This document shows, piece after piece, positions 1-14,141 of a stretch of DNA of 64,000 nt (the stretch's first letter is position 1; each line of letters starts with the position of its first letter). A program made the position numbers and the translations under genes. Origin of the DNA: Acutalibacteraceae bacterium (lineage in GTDB: Bacteria; Bacillota; Clostridia; Oscillospirales; Acutalibacteraceae); the NCBI GenBank assembly GCA_045601885.1, contig JAZSAN010000005.1, forward strand, positions 21,851 through 85,850, in the 5' to 3' direction. Below the pieces are notes generated by a model that searched no databases, was not told the DNA's origin, and saw only the letters and a program-made list of their open reading frames with translations.

Positions 1-1
1 G

Positions 2-493
2 TTTAGACGACGATTTGGTAATTGTGAGTACATAAATGCTATCGAATATCAGAACCGCGGAGCACTACATTGTCACTTAATAGTAATTTTTGATGAAAAT
101 CCAACATTTACAATAACTAATGATGATATCAAAAAGTGTTGGAAACATGGTAGTTCTAATATCGGTCCGGTAACATCAGCGGAAGCTGATGCAAAATATC
201 TTACAAATTTTCTTTTTGAATATAAAGTAGAAAAAGAAGATTCGGACTACATATTGAAAACTAAAAAGCAACGTAAAGGTGAAAGAGTCTGTTATTATCC
301 AAGCCATAGCAGACTCTTTAATTGTTCTCAAGGTATTAAACGACCAGAAGTTATTAAAAATATTCCTTATAGTGAAGCATTATCGATGTTTAATTCAATT
401 GAATTAACAAATGCATTATCTATATATAACGACGATGGTAACATTGTTACAATCGAAAATTATAAAATAAAAAATGAAAAGGAGGTCTGCTGA
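2..493 (+). CDS. Rolling-circle replication initiator / relaxase-like HUH endonuclease, C-terminal part (5' end truncated by the window)
   Basis: The frame is open from position 2. It shows an HUH-like motif (GALHCHLIVIF) followed by E-x3-KY (EADAKYLTNF), as in pC194/pUB110-type Rep proteins. Its stop overlaps the next start (TGATG). Confidence 0.55.
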   Translation, partial: FRRRFGNCEYINAIEYQNRGALHCHLIVIFDENPTFTITNDDIKKCWKHGSSNIGPVTSAEADAKYLTNFLFEYKVEKEDSDYILKTKKQRKGERVCYYPSHSRLFNCSQGIKRPEVIKNIPYSEALSMFNSIELTNALSIYNDDGNIVTIENYKIKNEKEVC

Positions 494-681
494 TGCCCCA
501 AATTCGCACTATTAAAGGCGCTGCCGACGAAATTAAGAAAGTTGACCCTAATACCGCAATAACTGAATATCGAATTAGATTACTAGTTAATGAAAAATCA
601 ATACCATCAGTTTCGGTTGGCAATCGAAAACTCGTCAATATGGACGACGTATGGGATTGCTTTAAATTTAAAGTTTCTTAA
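493..681 (+). CDS. Excisionase-like HTH DNA-binding protein (Xis-like)
   Basis: 62 aa, translationally coupled to Rep and immediately upstream of int. It has an HTH_17/excisionase-like pattern (ITEYRIRLLVNEKSIPSVSVGNRKLVN). Confidence 0.5.
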   Translation: MPQIRTIKGAADEIKKVDPNTAITEYRIRLLVNEKSIPSVSVGNRKLVNMDDVWDCFKFKVS

Positions 682-695
682 TTAAAATTGATTTG

Positions 696-732
696 GGGTG
701 GGAAATAAAATTCCCACCCACTAGTGTATAAT
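696..732 (+). promoter_or_regulatory. Operator palindrome copy 1 plus an extended -10 (candidate int promoter)
   Basis: GGGTGGGAA-ATAAAA-TTCCCACCC is a perfect 9-bp inverted repeat (696-719). It is followed 7 nt later by TGTATAAT (725-732). There is no U-tract, so it does not look like a terminator. Confidence 0.5.
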
Positions 733-766
733 GAAGTCATAATCATAAGAAAGAGGTATTAATTAA

Positions 767-2134
767 ATGGCTTCTGTTGAAAAGCGAAGTAACGGTTATC
801 GTATTACAGTTTATGACGGTTATAATGATAGTGGCCGTCAAGTAAAACACCATAAAACCTGGAAACCTTCTGCCGATATGACCGAATATCAAATTAAAAA
901 AGAACTTGAAAGACAGTGCGTTGCTTTTGAGCAAGAATGTAAGAGCGGTCAAACATTATCCGGCGCAATAAAATTAAAAGAGTATATAGAACTTTGGTTT
1001 GATAAATATGCAGTATCTCATCTCAGACAAACAACACTTGATAATTATCACGATTTAAGTAAAAGAGTTTACAAAGAAATAGGACATATCAGAATAGATA
1101 GATTAAATCCTAATGACCTTAATAAATTTTATGCCTCATTGATGGGCTACACTCCGCAAAATCATAACAACTATGCTCTCAAATTTGACTTCAAATCAAT
1201 TTTATCCGAAAGAAACATTTCATATAGGAAGTTTGCCGAAATGTCAAATGTGGGTATCAGAACAGTAAATTCAATCGCTTCTGGCGATAATGTTTCTTTA
1301 CAAACAGCACATAAAATCGCTGATTGCTTAAAGCTCGATTTTGAAAAACATTTTAAACCTGCAAATAATCAAAAAGGCATATTATCTTCTAAAACCGTTA
1401 AACATTATCATAGTTTCTTATCATCAGCATTATCCAAAGCGGTAAAATGGGGTTATATTAAAGACAATCCTTGTGATAGAGTTGACCCGCCGCGAATCCA
1501 GCATAAACAAATAAAATGTTTCACGACAGATGAAGCAAAAATATTTTTAAAAGGATTATCACAAGAATGTTTAAAGTATCGCGTAATGTTTTCAATCCTA
1601 ATTTATACTGGACTTAGGCGCGGCGAACTATTAGGTCTTGAATGGTCTGATATTAACTTTGAAAAGAAAACAATTTCAATAAGTAGAACATCAGTACATA
1701 TACGTTCAAAAGGTATTGTTACAGATACTACAAAAAATGAATATTCAATCCGCGAAATTTCTATTTCAGATGAATTAATTGAACTTTTGAAATTATATTA
1801 TCAAGAGCAGCAAGAATTAAAAGCAAAGCTTGGAGATATGTGGGTTGAAACAAATAGAATTTGCATAAGAGATGATGGCAGCCCAATGGGTGTAGGCACG
1901 CCTTATAACACGTTACAAAAGTTACTAAAAAAATACAAATTGCCTGATGTTTCATTACATAGTTTAAGACATACTAACGCTACTATAATGATTGAATCAG
2001 GAACGGATTTAAAGACTACATCTACACGCTTAGGGCATTCTCAGGCAAGTACAACAATGAATATTTATGTTCATCAAATTAAATCATCAAATGAGCATGC
2101 AGCAGAAAATATATCTAAAGCATTAGCTATATAA
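767..2134 (+). CDS. int: Tyrosine site-specific integrase with an internal XRE-like HTH insertion
   Basis: It has an N-terminal arm-binding type start (MASVEKRSNGYRITVYDGY), a catalytic region with LRRGELLGLEW, HSLRHTNATIM and LGHSQASTTMNIYVH, and a good SD. Confidence 0.9.
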   Translation: MASVEKRSNGYRITVYDGYNDSGRQVKHHKTWKPSADMTEYQIKKELERQCVAFEQECKSGQTLSGAIKLKEYIELWFDKYAVSHLRQTTLDNYHDLSKRVYKEIGHIRIDRLNPNDLNKFYASLMGYTPQNHNNYALKFDFKSILSERNISYRKFAEMSNVGIRTVNSIASGDNVSLQTAHKIADCLKLDFEKHFKPANNQKGILSSKTVKHYHSFLSSALSKAVKWGYIKDNPCDRVDPPRIQHKQIKCFTTDEAKIFLKGLSQECLKYRVMFSILIYTGLRRGELLGLEWSDINFEKKTISISRTSVHIRSKGIVTDTTKNEYSIREISISDELIELLKLYYQEQQELKAKLGDMWVETNRICIRDDGSPMGVGTPYNTLQKLLKKYKLPDVSLHSLRHTNATIMIESGTDLKTTSTRLGHSQASTTMNIYVHQIKSSNEHAAENISKALAI

Positions 2135-2143
2135 ACAACGAAT

Positions 2144-2170
2144 ATCCCTACAGAGCAAAACTGTAGGGAT
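2144..2170. terminator. Bidirectional hairpin between int and the convergent 167-aa gene
   Basis: ATCCCTACAG-agcaaaa-CTGTAGGGAT is a perfect 10-bp stem. Confidence 0.6.
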
Positions 2171-2176
2171 ATAATT

Positions 2177-2680
2177 TTAATCATCGAAGGTATAACGGTA
2201 ATGCAAGTTATTATCATATATAAATTTGACAGACTTAATACCATTATAACCTTTTTTGAATTTTAATTTTGCAAGAATCATTTTGCGGTATTTTTCCTCT
2301 GCGAAAAAAGTGCTGCAATAAATAATAATCTTTTTATCCTTGCGTATCTCATATCTACCTCTTGGAAAGTAATAAAAAGACTTATTTTGAGTAATTGATT
2401 TATCGAAATCTTTCCATACATTTTCGTGGGAATATTTGTGTTTATCAAAAATTGCCTCTAACGAATTAAAGGAATACTTATATGTAATAAGCCGCTCATT
2501 ATTATATTTATCTTTTATTAACCAAAATACCCCTTTATTTAGGAAGTTCAAATCTTCATCCAAATATTCGCCGTCGGTGGTAATATCGGATTTTTCTTGT
2601 TTTTCTTCAATAATACTTTCAATGTATTCTGCAAGTTCTTCTCTCGTTCTTAAATTTTCGGTTAAAAAATTATAATCCAT
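2177..2680 (-). CDS. Hypothetical protein (167 aa), last gene of the minus-strand run
   Basis: Long ORF with an SD. It has an acidic N-terminus and an FYYFPRGRYEI motif. I do not recognise the family. Confidence 0.5.
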   Translation of the reverse strand: MDYNFLTENLRTREELAEYIESIIEEKQEKSDITTDGEYLDEDLNFLNKGVFWLIKDKYNNERLITYKYSFNSLEAIFDKHKYSHENVWKDFDKSITQNKSFYYFPRGRYEIRKDKKIIIYCSTFFAEEKYRKMILAKLKFKKGYNGIKSVKFIYDNNLHYRYTFDD

Positions 2681-2759
2681 CTATAACAATCCTTATTTAA
2701 TATAATAATTGAATAACTCTGCCAAATTTATAATTAAATAACAATAAATTAAGCTTAAA

Positions 2760-3986
2760 TTATCTATTAATTATTGTACAATTAGGATAATTTATTTCAT
2801 ACCAAGCCATAACACATTTTAATTGTAATCTACTAATACAAGGTGCCACCGACCATAAGCTATTTACCTCACTAAAATAATTTTTAATCCACAATGGAAT
2901 ATTATATTCATCTAAAAGATATTCATATTTATTATGCTTGTTATTATGACTCCAAAAAGCATGTTTTATAAAATCAAAGGCGATATCATCGGACATACCA
3001 TATGAAGTTAAAACTTCAAAAAATTCATCTTTAGAAACAAAAAAATCGGGTTTATATATGTTTTCTAATGATTTTTTATGAGTAAATGAACCATTTAGAT
3101 AAGCATATATTCGGGTTAATGTTTTAAAATCACATTCGGTAATCGTTTCAATTTCTTCAGTAAAAGCTCTTCCTCTAGCATATTCTTTTTCACTTATAGA
3201 TTTATTTTCTATAAATTCAGCCAACATTTCATTCGAATCTTTTGCAATGTATTTTAAAACCTCAATATACACATCTTTTTTATATTGTTCTGAGGTAGGA
3301 AAAACTCCTGTTTTTTTAGCAATTATTCCAATGTTTTCACATATCTTAGAATCTGCGATTATGATTTCCTTGTATATTTTTTTATTACTATTAACCGTAC
3401 CAAATTTCGCATTTAATCGTTTTTTAATTAAATGTTTAATTGATGCCGCAACACTTAATGAAAAATCTGGAATTTGCGGATTATAAAACGAACCCCATAC
3501 AATTTCAAATGGTATATAAAAGCCATCTTTTTTTATTTCCCCTTCGTTTTTCTGACAAATTTTATCTGGCATATCTATTCCAAAACCACTTGTAGATATT
3601 TTAGTATCAAAACAAAATGTACAAATCGAATCAGAACAACGATAATGTGCTTTCATTGGATTGATATATGAAACTCCAAGCAAATAAGCGATTACAGAAC
3701 CAGAAAGCGCGCCTTGAATCATAACAGGATAACCTTCCTCTCTTGATAAGTCTGTAATTTCTTTTATCAGAGCGAAATGAAAGGCGGTACCCGTCTTTTT
3801 CATTAATTGAAGTTCGGTTTCTAATCGTCCGACAATAAAATTCATACCATAAAGTTCACCGGCTTTTCCACGGCATAGTTTAATAATTTGTTGCTCAATA
3901 TTCTTTATTTCTTCTTCAGTCGGACAGGTAAAACTCAACTTGCAGTAATTTGTATTTTTACCCGCTGATATAATTTTAATGTTCAT
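2760..3986 (-). CDS. PolC-like (DNA polymerase III alpha, Gram-positive type) palm/fingers fragment, apparently catalytically degenerate
   Basis: It matches PolC landmarks: HY-C...C, GFGIDMPDKIC...KDGFYIPFE, and a C-terminal PLWIKNYFSEVNSLWSVAPC...AWYEINYP resembling PolC's VP.WYI.SC.KIKYMFPKAHAAAY...AYFK. PolC's PDIDLNFS is PDFSLSVA here, and the central catalytic segment is missing. Confidence 0.6.
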   Translation of the reverse strand: MNIKIISAGKNTNYCKLSFTCPTEEEIKNIEQQIIKLCRGKAGELYGMNFIVGRLETELQLMKKTGTAFHFALIKEITDLSREEGYPVMIQGALSGSVIAYLLGVSYINPMKAHYRCSDSICTFCFDTKISTSGFGIDMPDKICQKNEGEIKKDGFYIPFEIVWGSFYNPQIPDFSLSVAASIKHLIKKRLNAKFGTVNSNKKIYKEIIIADSKICENIGIIAKKTGVFPTSEQYKKDVYIEVLKYIAKDSNEMLAEFIENKSISEKEYARGRAFTEEIETITECDFKTLTRIYAYLNGSFTHKKSLENIYKPDFFVSKDEFFEVLTSYGMSDDIAFDFIKHAFWSHNNKHNKYEYLLDEYNIPLWIKNYFSEVNSLWSVAPCISRLQLKCVMAWYEINYPNCTIINR

Positions 3987-3998
3987 TTTGTTGCTCCT

Positions 3999-4673
3999 TT
4001 ATTTTACATAATATTCCTTGAAATCATTTAAACAAATACAACCCAAAATTCTACCAAAAACCGCCCCACAATCAATAGCAATATGATTATTTTTTATATA
4101 AATTTTTCCATCATATTTAGGGCCAATAAATATTGTTGGGGTGTGCCCGGTTACTATATATTTATTATCATAATATTTTTTATCATATTCAGGGGCGCCG
4201 GCAATAAAATCTTCACGCTCTAAATTGCAATCGAGCAACATTCTATCCTTTTGAGGTATAGTATGAGAAAGCCAAAATTTATTACCATCAACACTTATAT
4301 CTTTAAATATAGTAAACCGACTAATGTAGTTTATTATTTCAAATTGTTCACGCTCAGATAACTCTAGAAACGCATTATTTGTCGGTTCCCCGCCAATCAT
4401 CATCCACATTTTATATCCTAAATCAAGATAATCAAATTCTTCTCTGTTATATATCTTTTTAAACATTCTAAGCGCGGTATAATCGTGGTTACCTAATATA
4501 GGAATAACATTTTTTCTTTTCATCATATCTTGATATATTTTTATGCCGTCAGGTCCTCTGTCAACTATATCACCTAAAATATATAAAGTATCTTCATCAC
4601 TAAATTTTATCTTTTCAAGCATTTTTATATACAAATCATAACATCCGTGTAAATCACTCATTGCGTAAATCAT
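3999..4673 (-). CDS. PPP-family metallophosphoesterase (lambda phosphatase / PrpE / ApaH-like)
   Basis: Motifs present: SDLHG, GDIVDRGPDG, GNHD, GHTP. Confidence 0.85.
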   Translation of the reverse strand: MIYAMSDLHGCYDLYIKMLEKIKFSDEDTLYILGDIVDRGPDGIKIYQDMMKRKNVIPILGNHDYTALRMFKKIYNREEFDYLDLGYKMWMMIGGEPTNNAFLELSEREQFEIINYISRFTIFKDISVDGNKFWLSHTIPQKDRMLLDCNLEREDFIAGAPEYDKKYYDNKYIVTGHTPTIFIGPKYDGKIYIKNNHIAIDCGAVFGRILGCICLNDFKEYYVK

Positions 4674-4780
4674 AATTTAAACCTCTCAATAGTTATTTTT
4701 TATTATTGTATTTCTTGTAATTTAACGGCATTTTCCTACCTTTACTTACATAAAAAACACATACTGTTTTATTCTTAGCC

Positions 4781-5296
4781 TTAAACACATATTTCGTGAA
4801 TTAAGTTTCTATAAAAATCAATTTGATTTATTTTGGAAAAGTCTGTTTTTCTCTCGAGTTTTTCTCGAATGGGTTTAATCTCTTCTTCACACATATCATA
4901 ATAGGTCATATGATATAGTATTCCACCTAATATAGCATCAACGCCATATTTTTCAATACTACACTCATGAACAGGAATACCTAATGCCTGACCCCAATTC
5001 CAACCAAATTCAGTTATACCTTTTAAACTATAATTATTGGCAACAACTTTATCCATATCCGCAAGTGCAACATAAGGAAAGTTTTCATATTTTTCATGCG
5101 GTACAGCAATATAACCAAAATCTTCACCGCACAAATAACACCTTGTGGGAAGATACTCCTTGATATCATCTATTATTAAGCGATATCTTTCTATCAAAGT
5201 GTTTAAATCATCTTCCGGATATTTAGCCAACTTACAAATTGCTTTCGCAACACCTTCGACAGTGCATTCATAAATCAAATTCTCTGCATAGTACAT
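4781..5296 (-). CDS. Hypothetical protein (about 171 aa)
   Basis: The ORF-track start is 5311, but GAGGAG-7nt-ATG favours 5296. I recognise no family with confidence. Confidence 0.5.
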   Translation of the reverse strand: MYYAENLIYECTVEGVAKAICKLAKYPEDDLNTLIERYRLIIDDIKEYLPTRCYLCGEDFGYIAVPHEKYENFPYVALADMDKVVANNYSLKGITEFGWNWGQALGIPVHECSIEKYGVDAILGGILYHMTYYDMCEEEIKPIREKLERKTDFSKINQIDFYRNLIHEICV

Positions 5297-5364
5297 AAAA
5301 ATTCTCCTCACACAGTATTTTTATTTAAACTTTTTTAAGTTTTAATTTGTACCAATCACAGCAA

Positions 5365-5640
5365 TTAGAAATTTCGTCTATATCCTCGCGAATCTGTGAT
5401 GATATTCTTTTCTTTCCAATCGCACAAATTAATCCGAGCTTTATCTCTAGCGGTATATATTGTAACATTCTCATATGCTATTTCTTCAAGCAGGAATTGA
5501 ACCGCTGCAGCAACACCGTAGCAGTCGCCAATTATTATTTCATTACCTTCTTTACAAAGGTTCATAATGTAATTTATCGCTTCAATAGGCAGGCCGCTTA
5601 ATTCTTTACTGCCAAATATGTATACCTTCAAAAGTACCAC
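5365..5640 (-). CDS. Small Rossmann-like protein, possibly SLOG/DprA/DUF2493-like
   Basis: The pattern KVYIFGSKEL...NEIIIGDCYGVAAAVQ..L....NVTIY resembles SLOG/DprA-type folds. It has a GTG start and a weak SD. Confidence 0.35.
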   Translation of the reverse strand: MVLLKVYIFGSKELSGLPIEAINYIMNLCKEGNEIIIGDCYGVAAAVQFLLEEIAYENVTIYTARDKARINLCDWKEKNIITDSRGYRRNF

Positions 5641-5650
5641 TTTCTATAAT

Positions 5651-6439
5651 CTAAATGATTGTTTTTTTAATAAAATCACTAACAGGATACAACGCTATAT
5701 CTTTACCGGTTAGTTCTTCTGTGTAGTATTTTAAATTGGTGAAAAATAAAACATAATCTTTTTCGAGAGTTTTACCATCATCAGAGACATAATAGCAAAT
5801 AGCGCCCATATCATTTGGTGAAACGCTTTCTAATATGACTATTTTTTCTTCAATTAAATCATATAAAATATCGCCAGATTTAAAAGGAGTAGGCAGTTTA
5901 ACATAGTCTTCGGCCATCCCAAAAAAGGCGCTTAATGGGTTCCATTCGCTACATTTGTGAATAGAAATTAGTTCGCCATCAATATATTCCGCTTTAATTG
6001 TATCATCATACGTATTAAACGGTATTTTATGTATTTTATATCCCTTAACAACACGTTTTGTATTAATAATGTTTTCTTTAATATGATTTAAGCAGGATTC
6101 ATAATCTTTAAAGTAAATTGCCAAATGTGAAGTGTGTTCTTCATAATCAATAAATCCTGTATAAAATGAATTATCATCTTTTTCGGTGAGTTCCTGCTTT
6201 ATTAATTCAAGATAATCAAAGTATTCTTTTATAAATGTATGAACACTTTTGCCATCTGAACGTGCGAATTCAAAATCCGACATTGTTAAAATACATTCTA
6301 ATGCCTCTGTTTTTTCTTTTAATTTTAGATTTTCATTTTGTAATAATATCCATAAACAGTCTTGCGAACTCAATTCATAATTGATTTTTCTTAAATGCTC
6401 CGCTACATCTTTCGAGTGAATATATTTGTAAAAATCCAT
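5651..6439 (-). CDS. Hypothetical protein (262 aa)
   Basis: Long ORF with an SD (AGAAAGGA). No motif recognised. Confidence 0.5.
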   Translation of the reverse strand: MDFYKYIHSKDVAEHLRKINYELSSQDCLWILLQNENLKLKEKTEALECILTMSDFEFARSDGKSVHTFIKEYFDYLELIKQELTEKDDNSFYTGFIDYEEHTSHLAIYFKDYESCLNHIKENIINTKRVVKGYKIHKIPFNTYDDTIKAEYIDGELISIHKCSEWNPLSAFFGMAEDYVKLPTPFKSGDILYDLIEEKIVILESVSPNDMGAICYYVSDDGKTLEKDYVLFFTNLKYYTEELTGKDIALYPVSDFIKKTII

Positions 6440-6559
6440 TTTTAAAATTCCTTTCTTGAACCATTCTTTAAAATACTATTCTATTTCTTTCTATATCTAG
6501 TTTTATGGACTCAAACAGAAAATTGTACTATTTATTCCGTAAACTCGATATGGTTGGTT

Positions 6560-7021
6560 TTATGCGACATTGAAATCGTCGGCAAATTGAAATTTAAAAT
6601 CCAAACTTACGGCATAACGAGTAATAATCATGGCGTCAATTAGTCTACAACCTTCGCAATCAATTACACATTGTGGTGCTCCGAGCTCAAAAAGTCTGAA
6701 TAATCTTCTCACTCTGCATTCAACCATTTCATCTTCTAATTGCAGCTCTAAACATTGAACAACACAATCAGTCTCATATATTCCCACATTATCTTCTAAT
6801 TGAGAATATAATATTTCAAAATCATCAATTACGTTCTGCAAATCGTTTTTATCCCAATTCATAGTATAGGATTCAAAATGTTGCTTCTCATATTCATCTG
6901 AGAAAGGGTCTTCATTTCTACGTGACAAAGTCAGCATATTTTCATTTGTGTTTTCAAACAAAAGTTTTGCATACTCAGTCGGGGTAAACTCATAACCATC
7001 ATTAAAAAATTTAATCTCCAT
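6560..7021 (-). CDS. Hypothetical acidic protein (153 aa)
   Basis: Long ORF with an SD (AAGAGG). It is rich in D/E and has several Cys. Confidence 0.5.
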   Translation of the reverse strand: MEIKFFNDGYEFTPTEYAKLLFENTNENMLTLSRRNEDPFSDEYEKQHFESYTMNWDKNDLQNVIDDFEILYSQLEDNVGIYETDCVVQCLELQLEDEMVECRVRRLFRLFELGAPQCVIDCEGCRLIDAMIITRYAVSLDFKFQFADDFNVA

Positions 7022-7128
7022 TTTATTACCTCTTAATTCTTTATTCTAAAATTAAAAATAAACTTTTATATTTCACGGATGGTATTGCTCGTTTTATGGG
7101 TTTTCGTACATTAGTAACCACATCTTAC

Positions 7129-7890
7129 TCACAAAGAATCATAAAATTTAATAACCTTATCTATAAACTCTTTTACCATAGATTTATCAATCAACGCTTT
7201 GTGTCTTTGATAATATTCTTCAATTTTCCTTAAAGTGCGTATAAACTGCGGAATCGTAAGTTCCGTTTCTGTTAGAAGCATTAATGCTTCATTTTCAATT
7301 TTCACGCAAGAATTTTCTAAAAAGTTTGTTACCATTTCAATACGCTTTTCTTTGGCGGTAAAACCTGTATCAGCAAAAAGTGCCTCTCCAAAAATAAGTT
7401 TATATAAAACTTCTAATTCATGAGGATAACAATTTGATGCCAACAACACCTTCAGTCCATTTGAAACTTTTTTTAAAATCAATTTTGCAATTTCTTCTTG
7501 TGTTGTGGTTTTATTTAGCAAATAATCAACATCATCAATTATTAGAAGTTGCACTTCTTCAATTTCGTTTAGTCGTGTTTTTCGCTTGAATATAAAACTT
7601 AGATATTCTTCGCCCAATTCTTTGGCGTTAAGCGAACAAACACTGTGTTTTGTTTTGAATTGATTTTCCGTAGCTCTAAGAAGATGAGTTTTGCCTCGTC
7701 CAATTGGACCATATAACCATAATATCTTTATATCGTAAGGCAATGCTGAAAAAAATTCTTTACAAGCTACAACTGCAAAACGGTTAGTAGAATCTTCTAT
7801 GAATGTATCAAATGTAAATTCCTTTATGTCCAATTTCGCACAATCTACAGGTGACATACTAATATCGCCACTACAATTTTTAATCTCCAT
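7129..7890 (-). CDS. DnaA/Hda-like AAA+ ATPase lacking the DnaA DNA-binding domain
   Basis: Walker A is LYGPIGRGKTHLL and Walker B is LLIIDDVDYL. A DnaA domain-III-like TTQEEIAKLILKKVSNGLKVLLASN follows. At 253 aa it has no domain IV. Confidence 0.75.
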   Translation of the reverse strand: MEIKNCSGDISMSPVDCAKLDIKEFTFDTFIEDSTNRFAVVACKEFFSALPYDIKILWLYGPIGRGKTHLLRATENQFKTKHSVCSLNAKELGEEYLSFIFKRKTRLNEIEEVQLLIIDDVDYLLNKTTTQEEIAKLILKKVSNGLKVLLASNCYPHELEVLYKLIFGEALFADTGFTAKEKRIEMVTNFLENSCVKIENEALMLLTETELTIPQFIRTLRKIEEYYQRHKALIDKSMVKEFIDKVIKFYDSL

Positions 7891-7956
7891 TTTTATTGCC
7901 TCTCAATTATCAATATTTTTAAAAATTAATCTTCCTTTCTTATGGGCTCTATTTCT

Positions 7957-8004
7957 ATTATACTATTTACGTGGGCGAAATTTTTCCCACGCAAAGAGTA
8001 TAAT
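7957..8004. promoter_or_regulatory. Back-to-back promoters centred on operator palindrome copy 2
   Basis: The plus strand reads ATTATA-8nt-GTGGGCGAAATTTTTCCCAC-8nt-TATAAT. This places a TATAAT 8 nt from each side of the palindrome, one facing each way. Confidence 0.55.
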
Positions 8005-8060
8005 TAAATTAACGCAAAAAATAAATTTCACTAACCACTATAACAATTCTAACAGAAAAG

Positions 8061-8095
8061 GTGGGAAAATTATTTCCTACATTATGCGATATAAT
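8061..8095 (+). promoter_or_regulatory. Operator palindrome copy 3 plus a -10 immediately upstream of the WYL gene
   Basis: GTGGGAAAATTATTTCCTAC (8061-8080) is followed 9 nt later by TATAAT (8090-8095). Confidence 0.5.
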
Positions 8096-8145
8096 GGTTG
8101 TGTAAATCAAAGATTTACGTTATAATATTTAAGAGGTGTTAAATT

Positions 8146-9696
8146 ATGGTTCCGGAGTTAAAAAGGCTAAAAGTACTATATGTTTATGAAATTCTTTCAA
8201 ATTCGGGTGAAGAAATGTCCCGAGCAGAAATTAACAGAATTTTATGGGACAAATATAAGATAAAAGAAACACCAAAAACCTTAAAAAAATTATTAGATGA
8301 TATGGTTTACGCAGAACTTATCGAAACCGGAGAACAGAAAGATAGAAAAACCAAAAAAATAGATGAAAACGGTAAATTGATAGAAGAAGATACAACAATG
8401 ACCATGGGATATTTTGTTGAGAAAGATTTTTCTGATGATGAGCTGTTATGGATTATACATAACACTATTTTTTCTAAGCAACTTACCGAAAACAAATCTA
8501 ATAATTTAGTTAAAAAACTTCTTAAATTAGGAACTAACGGCTTAAAGCAAAAAGTTGGTAGCGTTGAAGGTATGAAACAGTTTTACCATACCCCTAATCC
8601 CGCAGTATCTAATAATATTGAAACTTTAAGTGATGCAATTCACGAAGATAAAACCGTTCAATTCATTTATACTGAATACAAAAAAGATAAACAGTTACAT
8701 CCGCTATCTGAAGAGCCGATTACTGTTAAACCTGCGCGTATGGTTCCGCTTAATGGATTTTATTATCTAATAGCCTATGAAACAGAGAGCGAGACTATCC
8801 AGCACTACCGAATAGACAAAATTAAAAATCTTAAAAAGACTGATATAAAAACCGATTTCAGTTCCAAAAACAGTCGCATAAACATTGATGAATATTTATC
8901 TTCACATTCTTTTATGTTTGCAGGTAAACCTATACCGGTAAAAATCAAAGTCCCCGAAGATAAAATCGGTCTGGTTATTGATAGGTTTGGTGATAAAATT
9001 CATATTTATCAGGATGATAGCGACTATGTATCAATAGGTTTTAATTCTAACGAATCAGACCTTTATGTATGGGCGCTTGAAAATGGTGATTATGTCGAAG
9101 TAATCGAACCGCAGCATTTAAGAAATAAAATCAGAAATACCGTACAATCAATGACAAGATGTTATTTACAATCAAATGAAGACATTTATTTTAATGCTAT
9201 AAAAACCGCAAGAGAAACCCAAATATTTTATTGTGAAAATTTCAATTTTGCTAACAGAGAAGAATGGCTTCAACTTACAGATATTGAAAGCCTTGACCTT
9301 GACAATAATGGTTTTACCGATATTTCTATATTAAAACGCTTTAAAAAACTTGAATTTTTAAAAATTCAAAATGAACATATATCAGATATTTCTGTAATAA
9401 AAGAGTTACCCTCTTTGGGAGATTTATGTTTGCGAAATACAGATGTTGATAGCATTGAAGGTTTGCGCAATAGCAATATCGGATTTGTGGAATTATTAAA
9501 TAATAAAAACATTACAGATTATAGTCCGCTTTATGATATTAAGAAATTAAGATTGCTCACCATCGATAATAAATCTGCAGAGAAAATTGATACAGAAAGA
9601 TTACTTAAAAAATATGACCCACTTGAAATTGTAATAGAATATCCGGATAGAGAAGATAAACATTTATTTTCCAAATCACTTTTAGAAGAAAATTAA
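8146..9696 (+). CDS. WYL-domain transcriptional regulator (wHTH-WYL-WCX) with a C-terminal leucine-rich-repeat domain
   Basis: It has an N-terminal wHTH. The WYL-type core is VQFIYTEY...NGFYYLIAYETESETIQHYRIDKIKNL. The C-terminus has about five 22-aa internalin-type LRRs (LDLDNNGFTDISILKRFKKLEFLKIQNEHISDISVIKELPSL...). Confidence 0.75.
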   Translation: MVPELKRLKVLYVYEILSNSGEEMSRAEINRILWDKYKIKETPKTLKKLLDDMVYAELIETGEQKDRKTKKIDENGKLIEEDTTMTMGYFVEKDFSDDELLWIIHNTIFSKQLTENKSNNLVKKLLKLGTNGLKQKVGSVEGMKQFYHTPNPAVSNNIETLSDAIHEDKTVQFIYTEYKKDKQLHPLSEEPITVKPARMVPLNGFYYLIAYETESETIQHYRIDKIKNLKKTDIKTDFSSKNSRINIDEYLSSHSFMFAGKPIPVKIKVPEDKIGLVIDRFGDKIHIYQDDSDYVSIGFNSNESDLYVWALENGDYVEVIEPQHLRNKIRNTVQSMTRCYLQSNEDIYFNAIKTARETQIFYCENFNFANREEWLQLTDIESLDLDNNGFTDISILKRFKKLEFLKIQNEHISDISVIKELPSLGDLCLRNTDVDSIEGLRNSNIGFVELLNNKNITDYSPLYDIKKLRLLTIDNKSAEKIDTERLLKKYDPLEIVIEYPDREDKHLFSKSLLEEN

Positions 9697-9723
9697 TGTA
9701 AACAAATATTTACAAACAAAAAA

Positions 9724-9768
9724 ACCGATAGATAATGCAAAATCGCAAAATCTATCGGTTAATTTTTT
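9724..9768 (+). terminator. Rho-independent terminator of the WYL gene
   Basis: ACCGATAGAT...ATCTATCGGT stem followed by TAATTTTTT. Confidence 0.65.
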
Positions 9769-9770
9769 GT

Positions 9771-9790
9771 GTGGGAAAATTTTTTCTTAC
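9771..9790 (+). promoter_or_regulatory. Operator palindrome copy 4
   Basis: GTGGGAAAATTTTTTCTTAC is followed by TATGGT (9795-9800). It points into the 3' end of the convergent XRE gene. Confidence 0.4.
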
Positions 9791-9818
9791 CTACTATGGT
9801 AAACTATTTATAAAGAAA

Positions 9819-10118
9819 TTAATTCTTGTTTTCAAGGGCTTTTATAACATTTATAACTACGTCAATTTCATCTTCTGAAAGGTTAGAAACGTCAAGCATA
9901 CGAACCTTTTCTATATCAAGAAGATAATCGGTTGTAACGTGGAACAGGTGCGCCATTTTTACCAAAACATCATAAGATGGGTATCTGTCCCCAGATTCAT
10001 AATATGAAATAACAGACTTAGCAACTCCAAGTCTTTCGGCTAATTCTCGCTGTGATAATTTTTGTCCTGTTCTAAGCATCTTTAATTTTTCACCAAAGTT
10101 CACTTTATTTGTACCCAC
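9819..10118 (-). CDS. XRE-family HTH transcriptional regulator
   Basis: LSQRELAERLGVAKSVISYYESGDRYPSYDVLVKMAHLFHVTTDYLL. Confidence 0.9.
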   Translation of the reverse strand: MGTNKVNFGEKLKMLRTGQKLSQRELAERLGVAKSVISYYESGDRYPSYDVLVKMAHLFHVTTDYLLDIEKVRMLDVSNLSEDEIDVVINVIKALENKN

Positions 10119-10156
10119 CTTTCAATATCAGTCAACATTATTTTACTATTGTATCG

Positions 10157-10186
10157 TTGACAATTGGATATTTATTATGATAAAAT
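10157..10186 (+). promoter_or_regulatory. Sigma-A-type promoter for the 10250-13107 operon, embedded in GTCAAC/GTTGAC repeats
   Basis: TTGACA (10157-10162), then an 18-nt spacer ending in TG, then TAAAAT (10181-10186). GTCAAC/GTTGAC inverted copies and further GTCAA/TGAC elements flank it and are likely XRE operators. Confidence 0.55.
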
Positions 10187-10249
10187 AGTGGACAAGACAG
10201 TCAAAAACTATTATACTGACATTATAAATAACCGATTGGAGTGTTTGTA

Positions 10250-11260
10250 ATGTCAAAAAAAGTTTTTTTGGAAATGTATCAAGAGTTTATAGTAGAAATG
10301 GGTAAAGGTGAAGGTACAGCTAAAAGCTATGTATCATATTTAAACGGTGCTTGTAAAAATCTTCCTGAAATTGAAGATAATGCAATAGATAATATTGCTG
10401 ATATGACACAAGATGTTCAAGAAATATTTTGCGAAAATTTAATGAGAGCAATAGCTTCGGCACAAAAAAATAATAATACGTCTGTGTCAAATAAAACACT
10501 AGACAATTATCACAGTGCTGTTAATATGTTAATAGCATTTATAAATAGTAACAATGCACCTGCAAGTACAAAACCGGTTGTTAATATATTGTCTCTATCG
10601 GGTGAAGAAAGTTATTATTCTAAAGAAGATATTAAGAAGAACTTTTTAGCTCGTTTAAAAACACAAGACCGTTTTTATAATGAGTTTGGTTGTTTTCCAA
10701 TCAGGCTAATTAACAAAATAGCAACAGCAAATGGTAAGATTAAATTATTTGATAAATTAATTAATAATACAAGTTTTATATATAGTCTAACTGATGATAA
10801 GAAATCTCAATTAAGAATCATACAGCTTAAGGATATTGACGGTGTCTACATAAAAGATAATAAAGCATATGTTTCCATAAATAACAACAATTATCCAATT
10901 TTCACCGAAGAATATACCGATGGAAAGAAATCAGGATACGTAGTTGCTACCGTTAATACTTTTGGTGATTTGTCGTTAGACCACGATACTCCTATGTTTA
11001 CAGCTTTGTCCGGATTTTTCTATAGAGGAGCAACTACATTTGAGCAACTTTCGGTTAGTGCTTTAAAATACGTCAATAAAAAGCAATGGAGTAACAAAAA
11101 ACGAGCTAATAATCTTTCAAAAGAATATCTACATAGTCAGGAATATAAAGATTTAAAATTATCAGAAGAATCACTTTTGAACGAGGTTTTAGCCTTCATC
11201 AATACATTATCTTTAACTGTCATGCAAAGAAGTTTTAACAGTTCTAAAAATAAAAATTAA
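10250..11260 (+). CDS. Hypothetical protein (about 336 aa), with weak HNH-like hints
   Basis: GGAG-8nt-ATG at 10250 is preferred over the track's GTG at 10241. SLDHDTPM and a C-terminal QRSFNSSKNKN are only loosely HNH-like. Confidence 0.5.
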   Translation: MSKKVFLEMYQEFIVEMGKGEGTAKSYVSYLNGACKNLPEIEDNAIDNIADMTQDVQEIFCENLMRAIASAQKNNNTSVSNKTLDNYHSAVNMLIAFINSNNAPASTKPVVNILSLSGEESYYSKEDIKKNFLARLKTQDRFYNEFGCFPIRLINKIATANGKIKLFDKLINNTSFIYSLTDDKKSQLRIIQLKDIDGVYIKDNKAYVSINNNNYPIFTEEYTDGKKSGYVVATVNTFGDLSLDHDTPMFTALSGFFYRGATTFEQLSVSALKYVNKKQWSNKKRANNLSKEYLHSQEYKDLKLSEESLLNEVLAFINTLSLTVMQRSFNSSKNKN

Positions 11261-11278
11261 AATATAGGAGGAATGGAA

Positions 11279-12202
11279 ATGGGTGTAAATTTTATAGATG
11301 ATTTTATTGAAGATAACACATTGAATGATACCGCTTTTTATGAATTAAAATCTACTTTAATGGAAGCAATTAAAACATCAAAAAAATCAAGCATAACTGT
11401 GCATTATCCTAGAAATAACTATGGAGAGGCAGATTACCGATTACATATCAAAGCAAATTTAAATGCAATTAGACAGAATATTAACAATGAAAAAGCAATT
11501 AAAATTTATCTAGATTTCATTTTAAACGATGGAACATATTCCTCCGATATCAACCCTAATATTGCAAAAACGGAAATGTCATATGCAAAATTTTCTAATC
11601 TAATCTGTTATGAATTTGTTTATTATGTTATTAAACCATTATTAAATAAGTTAAAATCTTTGGATGACAAATATGGAATTTTAAGCGGCCAAACTGACGC
11701 AGTTGTCGGTATTTCTAAGAAAGCAACAACTAAAAAAGCCCCTGTAACACTTAAATGCGAAGTAAAACTTGAAAGCGTTGATGAATCCGGTGATGGCGAA
11801 ACTGTTGTCGAACCAACCAGACAGAAAATGAGGTCAATGTTTTTGAAGGCAACTACAAATAAAAATAAGTATAAATTTCTTATTAAGTCGACCTTAGAAA
11901 ATAAAAAGTATGATTATGTTGAAGTTAATTATAATAAAGACGGTTTAATCGTTTCGCTTATAAAGGACGAAAATGTTGAACAATCAAAATCGGTTAATAG
12001 CACCGTTGCTTATCGTGTTGTTAATGAATACATAAAGTGTGAAGACATAAATATTGATTCTATAGAGCAGGATGTTCTTTCACAACCGCCTAAACCAAAA
12101 CCAGTGCAACAAAGCAACAATTCATCTGGAGCAGGATGTTTAACGGCAGCTATTCCTATTGTCTGTTTTCTTATATACATAATACTTAAATTTTTTGATT
12201 AG
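11279..12202 (+). CDS. Hypothetical tail-anchored membrane protein
   Basis: AGGAGG-7nt-ATG at 11279; the track start at 11273 is too close to the SD. There is a single C-terminal TM helix (CLTAAIPIVCFLIYIILKFF). Confidence 0.5.
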   Translation: MGVNFIDDFIEDNTLNDTAFYELKSTLMEAIKTSKKSSITVHYPRNNYGEADYRLHIKANLNAIRQNINNEKAIKIYLDFILNDGTYSSDINPNIAKTEMSYAKFSNLICYEFVYYVIKPLLNKLKSLDDKYGILSGQTDAVVGISKKATTKKAPVTLKCEVKLESVDESGDGETVVEPTRQKMRSMFLKATTNKNKYKFLIKSTLENKKYDYVEVNYNKDGLIVSLIKDENVEQSKSVNSTVAYRVVNEYIKCEDINIDSIEQDVLSQPPKPKPVQQSNNSSGAGCLTAAIPIVCFLIYIILKFFD

Positions 12203-12218
12203 TGAGGTGAATCAATAA

Positions 12219-12425
12219 ATGGCAGATAAATATATTGTTGAAAGCGTAGTACATAATCGCGCTGTAAAGACAGAGGTATGGGCTCACACACCCAAAGAGG
12301 CCCAGGCATATGCAAAAAAGACATATGGTGACGCATATTCACATTCTTTTAGAACTACCAGGGTTTCTGGGACAAACGGTACTGAAGAATTTAAATGGCG
12401 TCGCGATAGAGGTATGCTTAAATAA
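12219..12425 (+). CDS. Small hypothetical protein (68 aa)
   Basis: It has a GAGGTGA SD and shares a PKEAQAYAKKTYG-like motif with the next small ORF. Confidence 0.45.
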   Translation: MADKYIVESVVHNRAVKTEVWAHTPKEAQAYAKKTYGDAYSHSFRTTRVSGTNGTEEFKWRRDRGMLK

Positions 12426-12473
12426 TCTCTTAATGAGCTTGTTTTAGAAAATAAAAGAAAGGAGTTTACAAAA

Positions 12474-12638
12474 ATGCATGAATTTCTTGTAAGATTTACC
12501 CTTAACAGAAAGACTGTTGAAGAAGTTGTAAAAGCAGTAAGCGGTTTTGAAGCTAAAGAGCAAATCAAAAACAAATATGGTAGCAGTAATGTTACTATTA
12601 TTAACTGTAAAGATTTAAAATTCGGTTGGATGGTTTAA
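12474..12638 (+). CDS. Small hypothetical protein (54 aa), not in the ORF track
   Basis: AAAGGAG-8nt-ATG start. Translation is MHEFLVRFTLNRKTVEEVVKAVSGFEAKEQIKNKYGSSNVTIINCKDLKFGWMV. It resembles the preceding 68-aa protein. Confidence 0.4.
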   Translation: MHEFLVRFTLNRKTVEEVVKAVSGFEAKEQIKNKYGSSNVTIINCKDLKFGWMV

Positions 12639-12651
12639 GGAGATGGTTTAA

Positions 12652-13107
12652 ATGTTGAAAAAGTTAACTGCTTTAGTTTTAGTACTATTATTATGTATGG
12701 CTTTTGTAGGTTGTGGAGAATCAAATAATCAAGATGAAGAAAAAACAAAAAATAATGTTTCTTCAGTTGAAAGTGATTCTTTAGACGCAGAATCAAATTT
12801 ACTAGAATCAAATATTGAATCTAATGTCGAGTCGGAAGTAGATAATTTGACAATATGTGTTTCTTGCGGAAACCGATTCGAATCATTGCGTGGATTCAAA
12901 TATTGTAATTCATGTAGATGTTGGACAACCACTTGTGAAAATAAAAGAGTAGATGGTTCGTCTTTTTGTGCTGAACATAAATGTTTGATATGCGATAGTA
13001 TTGCGTACGATTATTCCCCTTACTGTAATCAACATCGTTGTCGTGAATATGGTTGCGATTCTCCCGCGATATCGGGAGAAGAGCGTTGTATAGCTCATTT
13101 AAAATAA
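12652..13107 (+). CDS. Lipoprotein with Cys/His-rich repeats
   Basis: The signal peptide carries a lipobox (LCMAFVGCG). The C-terminal half has repeated C-x9-11-C-x2-H-x-C units. Confidence 0.65.
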   Translation: MLKKLTALVLVLLLCMAFVGCGESNNQDEEKTKNNVSSVESDSLDAESNLLESNIESNVESEVDNLTICVSCGNRFESLRGFKYCNSCRCWTTTCENKRVDGSSFCAEHKCLICDSIAYDYSPYCNQHRCREYGCDSPAISGEERCIAHLK

Positions 13108-13119
13108 TATTAAAAAATC

Positions 13120-13162
13120 AAACCGAAATTACTATTAAAAGTAGTGATTTCGGTTGTTTTTT
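13120..13162 (+). terminator. Rho-independent terminator of the 10250-13107 operon
   Basis: AACCGAAATTACT...AGTGATTTCGGTT stem followed by a T-run. Confidence 0.6.
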
Positions 13163-13259
13163 AGCATAATAAGCCCCAAATAAGCCCCCAAATGCACCAG
13201 AGAGCAAAAAAGAAAATCCCTAAAACCTTATAAACAAAGGCTTTAGGGACTCTTTAAGT

Positions 13260-13342
13260 TGGTGCGGGTGACAGGACTTGAACCTGCACGAATGCTCACC
13301 AGATCCTAAGTCTGGCGCGTCTGCCAATTCCGCCACACCCGC
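13260..13342 (-). tRNA. tRNA-Leu (anticodon UAG), long variable arm, encoded CCA
   Basis: The reverse complement GCGGGTG..CCAGA-CTTAGGA-TCTGG..GGTTCAAGTCC..CACCCGC-A-CCA folds as a class II cloverleaf. Confidence 0.9.
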
Positions 13343-13353
13343 AAGTATTAATA

Positions 13354-13382
13354 ATTTTAATATATTAATCTGATAAAGTCAA
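13354..13382 (-). promoter_or_regulatory. Promoter of tRNA-Leu
   Basis: On the minus strand: TTGACT, 17 nt, TAAAAT, ending about 11 nt before the tRNA 5' end. Confidence 0.6.
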
Positions 13383-13484
13383 GGAAATAATTGTTTATTT
13401 TAAACTTTTGTGATATAATATTATTAAAATATATCACTGATTACATCGCGCTTTCGTATTATGATATTGAAGGTGCGTGAATAT

Positions 13485-14141
13485 ATGAAAAAAAGAAGAA
13501 AAAAGTGTTTTTATTTTATTTTATTTGTGCTTTTGTTTTTAATTTTAGTCGTTTTTATTTTTTTGAAAACGGATAAAAATCTACGAATTTTGATTCTTGA
13601 AAGCGCAGAAAGCAAGGTCGGCCTTATTATGTCTGACTGTGCTAACACATCCGTTAATAAAGCGATTAACGAAAATGATATTACATATTCGGATATTATC
13701 CGTGTTAACCGTGATGAAAATAATAACATAACATCCTTGCAAACTGATATAATAAATCTTAACAAGATAAGAACGGAAATCGACCGCTTTTTCTCTAAGG
13801 AGATGGAAAAAAACTCCATAATTAATTTAAATCTGCCAATTGGCTCTGTAATCGGCAATGAATATACAATAGGCAGAGGTCCTTGCATTAATTATGAACT
13901 TGAGGTCTCTGTCAACACTTCAACCGACTATAACAGTAAATTTTATTCCGCGGGTATTAACCAAACGCTTCATCAAATAACCGTGCTTGTTTCAGGCGAT
14001 GCTTATATAATGTCGCCTTGGTATAGAAACACAATAAAATTTTCAACCGAATATATCGTTGCCGAAACAGTTATAACCGGTGTAGTTCCCGAGACAATCG
14101 CAGATTTTGATGTTAAAAAAACAGGTGATTTTAATGAATGA
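13485..14141 (+). CDS. yunB: Sporulation protein YunB
   Basis: N-terminal TM segment, YunB-like AGINQTLHQITV...GVVPE, and AGGTG-9nt-ATG at 13485. Confidence 0.7.
   Translation: MKKRRKKCFYFILFVLLFLILVVFIFLKTDKNLRILILESAESKVGLIMSDCANTSVNKAINENDITYSDIIRVNRDENNNITSLQTDIINLNKIRTEIDRFFSKEMEKNSIINLNLPIGSVIGNEYTIGRGPCINYELEVSVNTSTDYNSKFYSAGINQTLHQITVLVSGDAYIMSPWYRNTIKFSTEYIVAETVITGVVPETIADFDVKKTGDFNE

Follow-up and report, generated by a model that had tools for sequence, protein, structure and literature searches.

A palindromic box between two mirror-image -10 hexamers as a predicted DriD-like activator site in a clostridial integrative element

The intergenic region in front of a WYL-domain regulator gene in the Acutalibacteraceae genome contains, on the plus strand at 7957-8004, the succession ATTATA, ctatttac (8 nt), GTGGGCGAAATTTTTCCCAC, gcaaagag (8 nt) and TATAAT, as established by direct reading and a script check. 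On balance it is probable that the central palindrome, here called box B, is a DriD-like activator site that works in both directions and to which the WYL-WCX-LRR regulator encoded on the element binds as a homodimer. The window, that is the whole stretch of DNA analysed, is 64,000 nt long (G000:C5:21851-85850), and coordinates refer to it unless another locus is named. The parts of the site are the following:

7957-7962, minus strand: leftward -10, ATTATA on the plus strand and TATAAT on the minus strand, of the predicted cargo-operon promoter.
7971-7990, no strand assigned: box B, a 20-bp pseudo-palindrome (GTGGGCGAAATTTTTCCCAC) with an AT-rich centre, lying over the -35 positions of both divergent promoters.
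7999-8004, plus strand: rightward -10 TATAAT of the predicted promoter P1 of the WYL gene, with a start expected at about 8011.

With the leftward start expected at about 7950, some 60 nt of leader would precede the ATG at 7890. The initial annotation had described the site as ATTATA, 8 nt, palindrome, 8 nt, TATAAT, and its coordinates and both spacers are exact to the base. The genes that it placed on either side, DnaA-like to the left and WYL to the right, likewise agree with the gene coordinates and domain matches.

Box B is an imperfect palindrome in which 8 of the 10 positions per arm match and the mismatches lie in the inner part; its GTGGG/CCCAC cores are perfect and one further pair (C...G) extends it. 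The mirrored -10 layout around it is not due to chance. When the flanks were shuffled, exact TATAAT hexamers mirrored at 8 nt from the box had a probability of 0.0025, and equal spacing together with exact TATAAT on both sides one of 3e-5. If up to one mismatch is allowed, the window contains three occurrences of GTGGG-N10-CCCAC (0.23 expected), a number reached by none of 100 shuffles. Moreover, in the whole 1.5-Mb genome the composite of box, 8-9 nt and -10-like hexamer was found at only three sites, all of them in the island, with box B present in both orientations, and perfect boxes are confined to the element. The -35 positions of both promoters correspond to positions 6-12 of box B counted from either side. 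Since both fall in its centre, one bound dimer would serve the two promoters, in agreement with the earlier proposal of a single dimer over both -35 regions. The centres of the -10 hexamers are 42 bp apart with 8/8 spacers and 44 bp apart with 9/9 spacers, about four helical turns. P1 has no -35 element, the best match being 3/6 and without TTG.

The site belongs to a 17.8-kb integrated element, which is delimited by a pair of 23-bp direct repeats of the tRNA-Leu 3' end (TGGTGCGGGTGACAGGACTTGAA) at window positions 13260-13282 and -4587 (G000:C5:17264-17286). The tRNA-Leu itself (13260-13342, minus strand) was the only RNA family detected within positions 1-14000. The order of genes is Rep, Xis-like, tyrosine integrase (767-2134), leftward cargo operon, WYL-WCX-LRR, convergent xre and further unknowns, the integrase being located in the middle of the element and not at an end. 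The genes that concern box B are:

7890 down to 2177, minus strand: leftward cargo operon, encoding a DnaA-like AAA+ protein, unknowns, DUF6557, a metallophosphatase and, last, a Pol III alpha-like fragment.
7129-7890, minus strand: DnaA-like AAA+ ATPase gene, first of the cargo operon (Bac_DnaA, E 6e-21).
8146-9696, plus strand: WYL-WCX-LRR regulator gene, 516 aa (Pfam WYL 4e-11, WCX 1e-8 and LRR_4).
9819-10118, minus strand: xre gene, convergent with the WYL gene.

On the Xre side (10119-10240) inverted repeats CCAATATCAGTCAAC ... GTTGACnATTGG are conserved in all loci and are presumably Xre operators that surround a canonical promoter.

The box sequence is found beyond the 7971-7990 region, as it also precedes int and an antisense promoter directed into xre. 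The additional copies, and a promoter of the WYL gene which has no box, are:

698-717, plus strand: box A, GTGGGAAATAAAATTCCCAC, 9 nt, TATAAT (727-732); predicted promoter of the tyrosine integrase gene.
8061-8080, plus strand: box C (P2), GTGGGAAAATTATTTCCTAC, 9 nt, TATAAT (8090-8095); second predicted box-dependent promoter of the WYL gene.
9771-9790, plus strand: box D, GTGGGAAAATTTTTTCTTAC, 9 nt, TAAACT (9800-9805); located 3' of the WYL terminator and antisense into xre.
8098-8126, plus strand: P3, TTGTGT, 17 nt, TATAAT, without a box; directly 5' of the WYL ribosome-binding site (8131-8138), the ATG following at 8146.

At every copy (A, B-left, B-right, C and D) the distance from box to -10-like hexamer is 8-9 nt. 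Given its placement, box D may cause transcriptional interference with Xre once the regulator becomes active. P2 is kept in L006-L009, L013, L014, L076 and L078, and the position and geometry of box D in L006, L009 and L011-L014. Related int promoters have a GTGGG/CCCAC palindrome 9 nt (L013, L014) or 11 nt (L007) from the -10. The int boxes of these loci (L007:4650-4743, L013:4640-4729 and L014:4640-4730) have the 24-nt form GTGGGTG-N10-CACCCAC, in which the outer cores are 4 bp further apart.

A -35 element is missing from all of the box-linked promoters. In 20 flanks of box B-type sites from 10 loci, scored at spacings of 16-18 nt and including one flank without a -10 (the right side of L011), the mean best match to TTGACA was 1.95/6 against 2.58 for random background, and TTG was present in none. 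Extended -10 elements are equally absent from the box-linked promoters. P3, on the other hand, has the form TTGnnn, exactly 17 nt, TAnnnT in 13/13 loci, with TATAAT as the -10 in 11 of them and TATTAT and TAAAAT in one each. The box-linked sites lacking a -35 while P3 is canonical, the element relies on an ordinary promoter where the box is absent and on a -35-less one where it is present. A consensus promoter scanner passes over the box-linked promoters since it requires a -35. The strict co-regulation of sensor and cargo proposed at first is contradicted by this arrangement, because the WYL gene has in addition to P1 both P2, with its own box, and the box-free P3 that is found in every locus. 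The spacer of P3 holds a small palindrome, GTAAATC-AAA-GATTTAC (8102-8118), which is loosely preserved as G[TC]AAA...TTT[AG]C in relatives and could be a site for another factor.

The regulator family comprises about 33 clusters of WYL-WCX-LRR proteins with 40-90% identity. Fourteen loci were read, and the box-anchored set consists of 13 distinct 72-mers from about nine lineages, a small sample of the family. GTDB representatives contributed three close loci and an order-wide search one more. A protein alignment scan found no further relatives in JGI metagenome contigs or IMG/VR, and when the conserved P3 region was used as a DNA pattern the only two matches were unrelated chance occurrences. 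The loci have a common backbone of replication module, Xis-like protein, Int, variable leftward cargo, WYL-LRR, convergent Xre and variable rightward genes. As the first leftward gene varies by locus, the DnaA-like and PolC-like genes are exchangeable cargo; the operon named in the initial annotation as the target is indeed headed by the DnaA-like gene here, but its place is taken by other genes in relatives. Around the box the loci read as follows:

Window and L009: left TATAAT, 8 nt, GTGGGCGAAATTTTTCCCAC, 8 nt, right TATAAT.
L008: left TATAAT, 8 nt, GTGGGCAAAATTTTTCCCAC, 8 nt, right TATAAT.
L076: left TATAAT, 8 nt, GTGGGAAATATTTTTCCCAC, 8 nt, right TAAAAT.
L006 and L078: left TAAAAT, 9 nt, GTGGGAAATTTTCTTCCTAC, 9 nt, right TATAAT.
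L007 and L014: left TAAAAT, 9 nt, GTAGGAAAACTAATTCCTAC, 9 nt, right TATAAT.
L010: left TATAAT, 9 nt, ATGGGCAAAAAAATTCCCAT, 9 nt, right TATTCT.
L012 and L060: left TATAAT, 9 nt, ATAGGCGAAATTTCGCCCAT, 9 nt, right TATAAT.
L013: left TAAAAT, 9 nt, GTGTGCAAAACACTTCCCAC, 9 nt, right TATAAT.
L077: left TATAAT, 9 nt, ATGGTCGAAAAATCGGTCAT, 9 nt, right TATAAT.
L011 and L016: left TATCAT, 9 nt, ATGTTCGAAAAAACGGACAT, no right -10.

The left hexamer (TATAAT, TAAAAT or TATCAT, 8-9 nt from the box) is present in all 13 sequences and thus in all lineages, and the right one in all lineages except that of L011 and L016. Wherever both occur the spacers are symmetric, 8/8 or 9/9, while the spacer sequences themselves have diverged. 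In addition, half-site changes in relatives are mirrored (GTAGG..CCTAC, ATGGG..CCCAT, ATAGGCG..CGCCCAT), and the symmetric ones, GTAGG/CCTAC and ATGGG/CCCAT, fit a reader with two-fold symmetry. Symmetric spacers together with mirrored half-site changes are the trace to be expected if selection had maintained two genuine promoters on either side of a protein with two-fold symmetry, and this conservation of the layout argues that both promoters are real and coupled. Both -10 hexamers are predicted to fire.

Two further observations were made in these loci. In L007 (7700-7745), and likewise in L013 and L014, a strong hairpin (GAGTTTTCGGATT ... AATCCGAAGACTC) separates the leftward -10 from the first cargo gene; it may be an attenuator or a processing site in the long leftward leader of these three loci. 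In L062 (genome G041, contig C42) the sequence ATGGGACAAAAATGTTCCAT, 9 nt and TATTAT precede a WYL gene of 351 aa without LRR. This short paralogue having the same type of box and the same geometry, the box architecture is wider than the LRR-fused family.

The AlphaFold model of the regulator (pLDDT 82) consists of a winged helix-turn-helix (wHTH) of three N-terminal helices and a wing, three helices at 97-137, WYL, WCX and LRR. Pfam, the model and the fold matches agree on the architecture wHTH-3HB-WYL-WCX. The best Foldseek matches are the activators PafBC (9fnd, 6sj9), which comes first, and DriD (8tpk, 8tp8, 9pfq, 9pfv), with E values of 1e-11 to 1e-12, whereas the repressors CapW and BrxR rank lower (E about 1e-7). 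This ranking and the promoter geometries published for the activators favour activation over repression, so that the regulator is inferred to activate.

The closest likeness is to DriD of Caulobacter crescentus (PMC13004042, PMC10853764), a homodimeric wHTH-3HB-WYL-WCX regulator, the homodimer being a prediction in our case. According to the cryo-EM study of 2026, the promoters regulated by DriD all lack a -35, and its palindromic site takes that place in each of them with the distance to the -10 unchanged; in the didA oligonucleotide the -35 position falls in the centre of the site with the -10 located 8-9 nt past its end (PMC13004042). The same is found here: a pseudo-palindromic site, about 20 bp long and AT-rich in its centre, at the -35 place, a fixed distance of 8-9 nt to the -10 that agrees within 1 bp, promoters without a -35, and one site in the divergent intergenic region of the regulator's own gene. 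However, the box is GTGGG-N10-CCCAC instead of CGAC-N7-GTCG, which indicates the same class of site and not the DriD regulon; it is carried by a Firmicute mobile element rather than forming part of a chromosomal DNA-damage regulon, and the regulator has a C-terminal LRR domain. Moreover, DriD activates its bidirectional promoter in a single direction, whereas in the present case a -10 is equidistant on both sides of one box and activation is predicted. From these comparisons box B appears to be a WYL promoter box of the DriD type, found in a new lineage and with a new sequence, the symmetric two-way use being its distinctive trait.

Two other activators can be compared. SiwR of Mycobacterium smegmatis is also a homodimeric WYL activator, which has a 19-bp imperfect palindrome between the -10 and the -35 position of the adjoining operon, in a short region beside the regulator gene (PMC10693628), but it serves one target promoter in one direction, is actinobacterial and has neither an LRR domain nor a mobile element. 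Promoters subject to PafBC "sigma adaptation" are hybrids that lack a -35 and combine a canonical -10 with a regulator-specific element near -26 (PMC8635444), and the core of the proximal half-site here is at about -21 to -26. PafBC is nevertheless a heterodimer that places one wHTH on a non-palindromic element, whereas here the regulator is encoded by one gene and the box is two-fold symmetric, both of its arms being conserved.

The strongest alternative, although we regard it as rather unlikely, is that box B acts as an operator for repression of the CapW/BrxR type, in which case the WYL dimer would lie on the shared -35 and spacer region, block both directions and leave upon ligand binding, resulting in negative autoregulation and in de-repression of cargo and int. 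CapW and BrxR (of CBASS and BREX) have the same domain order, are homodimers and give significant fold matches, and their palindrome of about 20 bp is situated in the divergent region between regulator and cargo; a WYL gene facing a cargo operon around one palindrome is precisely the capW/CBASS layout, in which CapW represses both ways (PMC9122588). It might also be argued that a perfect TATAAT alone may allow some basal transcription in AT-rich Firmicutes. On the other side, CapW sites overlap the -10 (PMC9122588), while each box here ends 8-9 nt upstream of its -10 and touches none. Repression would require neither that five promoters have one fixed spacing nor that the spacers be symmetric (8/8 or 9/9), and target promoters lacking both -35 and extended -10 look weak unaided. 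Autorepression would also be bypassed by the canonical, box-free P3, the activators are better fold matches by about four orders of magnitude, and no cargo protein had a significant PADLOC family nor was a known defence system found next door. The initial description of back-to-back promoters sharing a central operator can be retained as to the two equidistant outward -10s, a layout kept in relatives, but the word operator implies repression and is doubtful, because no box overlaps a -10, the spacing is fixed at 8-9 nt and the box takes the place of the absent -35. If box B were a plain repressor operator, the finding would be an ordinary one.

A second alternative, which we consider improbable, is that just one of the two -10 hexamers works as a promoter, the mirror copy being kept for another reason or the cargo operon being transcribed from elsewhere. 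The one WYL bidirectional promoter that has been studied, driD/CCNA_03891, is activated by DriD one way only (PMC13004042); the rightward hexamer is missing from L011 and L016, and the WYL gene has P2 and P3 to replace it. No other pair of -10 and -35 was found between box B and the first cargo gene in the window, however, and the left hexamer persists in every lineage at its mirrored spacing in spite of the change in spacer sequence.

The identity of the protein that reads the box can be approached through a natural swap between loci L011 and L012 (both at 7880-8001). Identity between their backbone proteins is 87-100% (Int 100, Xis 98, Xre 99 and first cargo gene 96), but it falls to 28% in the wHTH of the WYL protein, and the left -10, the box and the right promoter differ, with the breakpoint just to the left of the leftward -10. 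As box and wHTH change together, the swap points to the wHTH of the WYL protein as the likely reader, and the element's own WYL-WCX-LRR protein is therefore the predicted ligand of box B. The tracking is imperfect, since one box is common to the window (class a) and L009 (class b), whose wHTHs are 44% identical, and the boxes of L014 (class j) are those of L007 (class b). K/R44-T45 is retained throughout in the recognition helix, a possible reason for the shared xTrGG core.

Least probable of all is a reading of the box by another protein, namely Xre, the HTH inserted in the integrase, the Xis-like protein or a host factor such as a host WYL paralogue, for which this imperfect tracking, the two host WYL paralogues encoded in the genome besides the element's regulator and the presence of a box before int could be invoked, but which is opposed by Xre, Int and Xis being 98-100% identical between L011 and L012 where the boxes differ, by separate Xre operators conserved everywhere, by the restriction of perfect boxes to the element, and by the different palindrome upstream of a host paralogue. 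Xre itself was rejected as the reader: it is near-invariant across loci (76-99% identical, at least 83% except in L010, with an essentially unchanged helix-turn-helix segment), is 99% identical in the two swapped loci despite their different boxes, and has its own conserved operators, the repeats CCAATAnCAGTCAAC ... GTTGACnATTGG of its intergenic region being conserved in all loci. The perfect palindrome of the host paralogue (TGCACCAAATTTGGTGCA) is found on contig C2 of G000 (about 217370-217582, minus strand).

Two other interpretations of the box were discarded. As RNA, box B would form a short hairpin (z -2.7 on the plus strand and -4.6 on the minus strand), but a role at this level was rejected because the box is upstream of both predicted starts. 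Alternative sigma factor readings, either a sigma-H-like RNAGGAWWW motif or the distal arm taken as a -35, do not fit the spacings, and the palindromy is kept even at sites used in one direction.

Returning to the DriD-like reading, a circuit can be proposed for the element. In two back-to-back promoters with no element of their own other than a -10, the regulator dimer would occupy the -35 place (about -21 to -40) and, once active, recruit the housekeeping RNA polymerase on either side. It might be activated by single-stranded DNA, on the model of DriD, PafBC and SiwR, and/or by something that the LRR domain senses. Basal regulator would be supplied by the box-free P3, and on receipt of the signal boxes A to D would fire. 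The leftward cargo operon would thereby be switched on, more regulator would be made from P1 and P2, the integrase would be expressed, and an antisense transcript across xre should lower Xre.

One dimer serving two divergent promoters is familiar from single-site divergent activation by CRP and from the shared divergent sites of MerR-type regulators. These are unrelated families, and their site is at -41.5 (CRP class II) or in the -35/-10 spacer (MerR), unlike box B. DriD binds its symmetric site in a tilted, asymmetric manner, with its core towards the polymerase on one side (PMC13004042). A dimer on box B could tilt either way, as both sides offer the same geometry, and since the -35 regions overlap two polymerases probably cannot engage together. 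A bolder proposal, which is possible but which we put forward only tentatively, is that box B is a two-faced stand-in for the -35, with recruitment to the left or to the right and never to both, so that cargo and regulator would alternate upon one and the same activation event and, with int driven by its box and an antisense promoter across xre, the WYL-LRR protein would induce the whole integrative element. If this were true, induction would depend on an activator and not, as is usual for mobile elements, on a switch by repressor cleavage.

WYL regulators occur widely as switches of the responses to DNA damage and phage alarm. The -10 hexamers equidistant on both sides of the box in about nine lineages provide a test case for whether one symmetric dimer can serve two promoters, and whether it does so together or in alternation. 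Moreover, the arrangement points to an activator-driven induction circuit, comprising int, cargo and antisense transcription to xre, in small integrative elements of gut Clostridia, whose regulator carries an exchangeable LRR domain.
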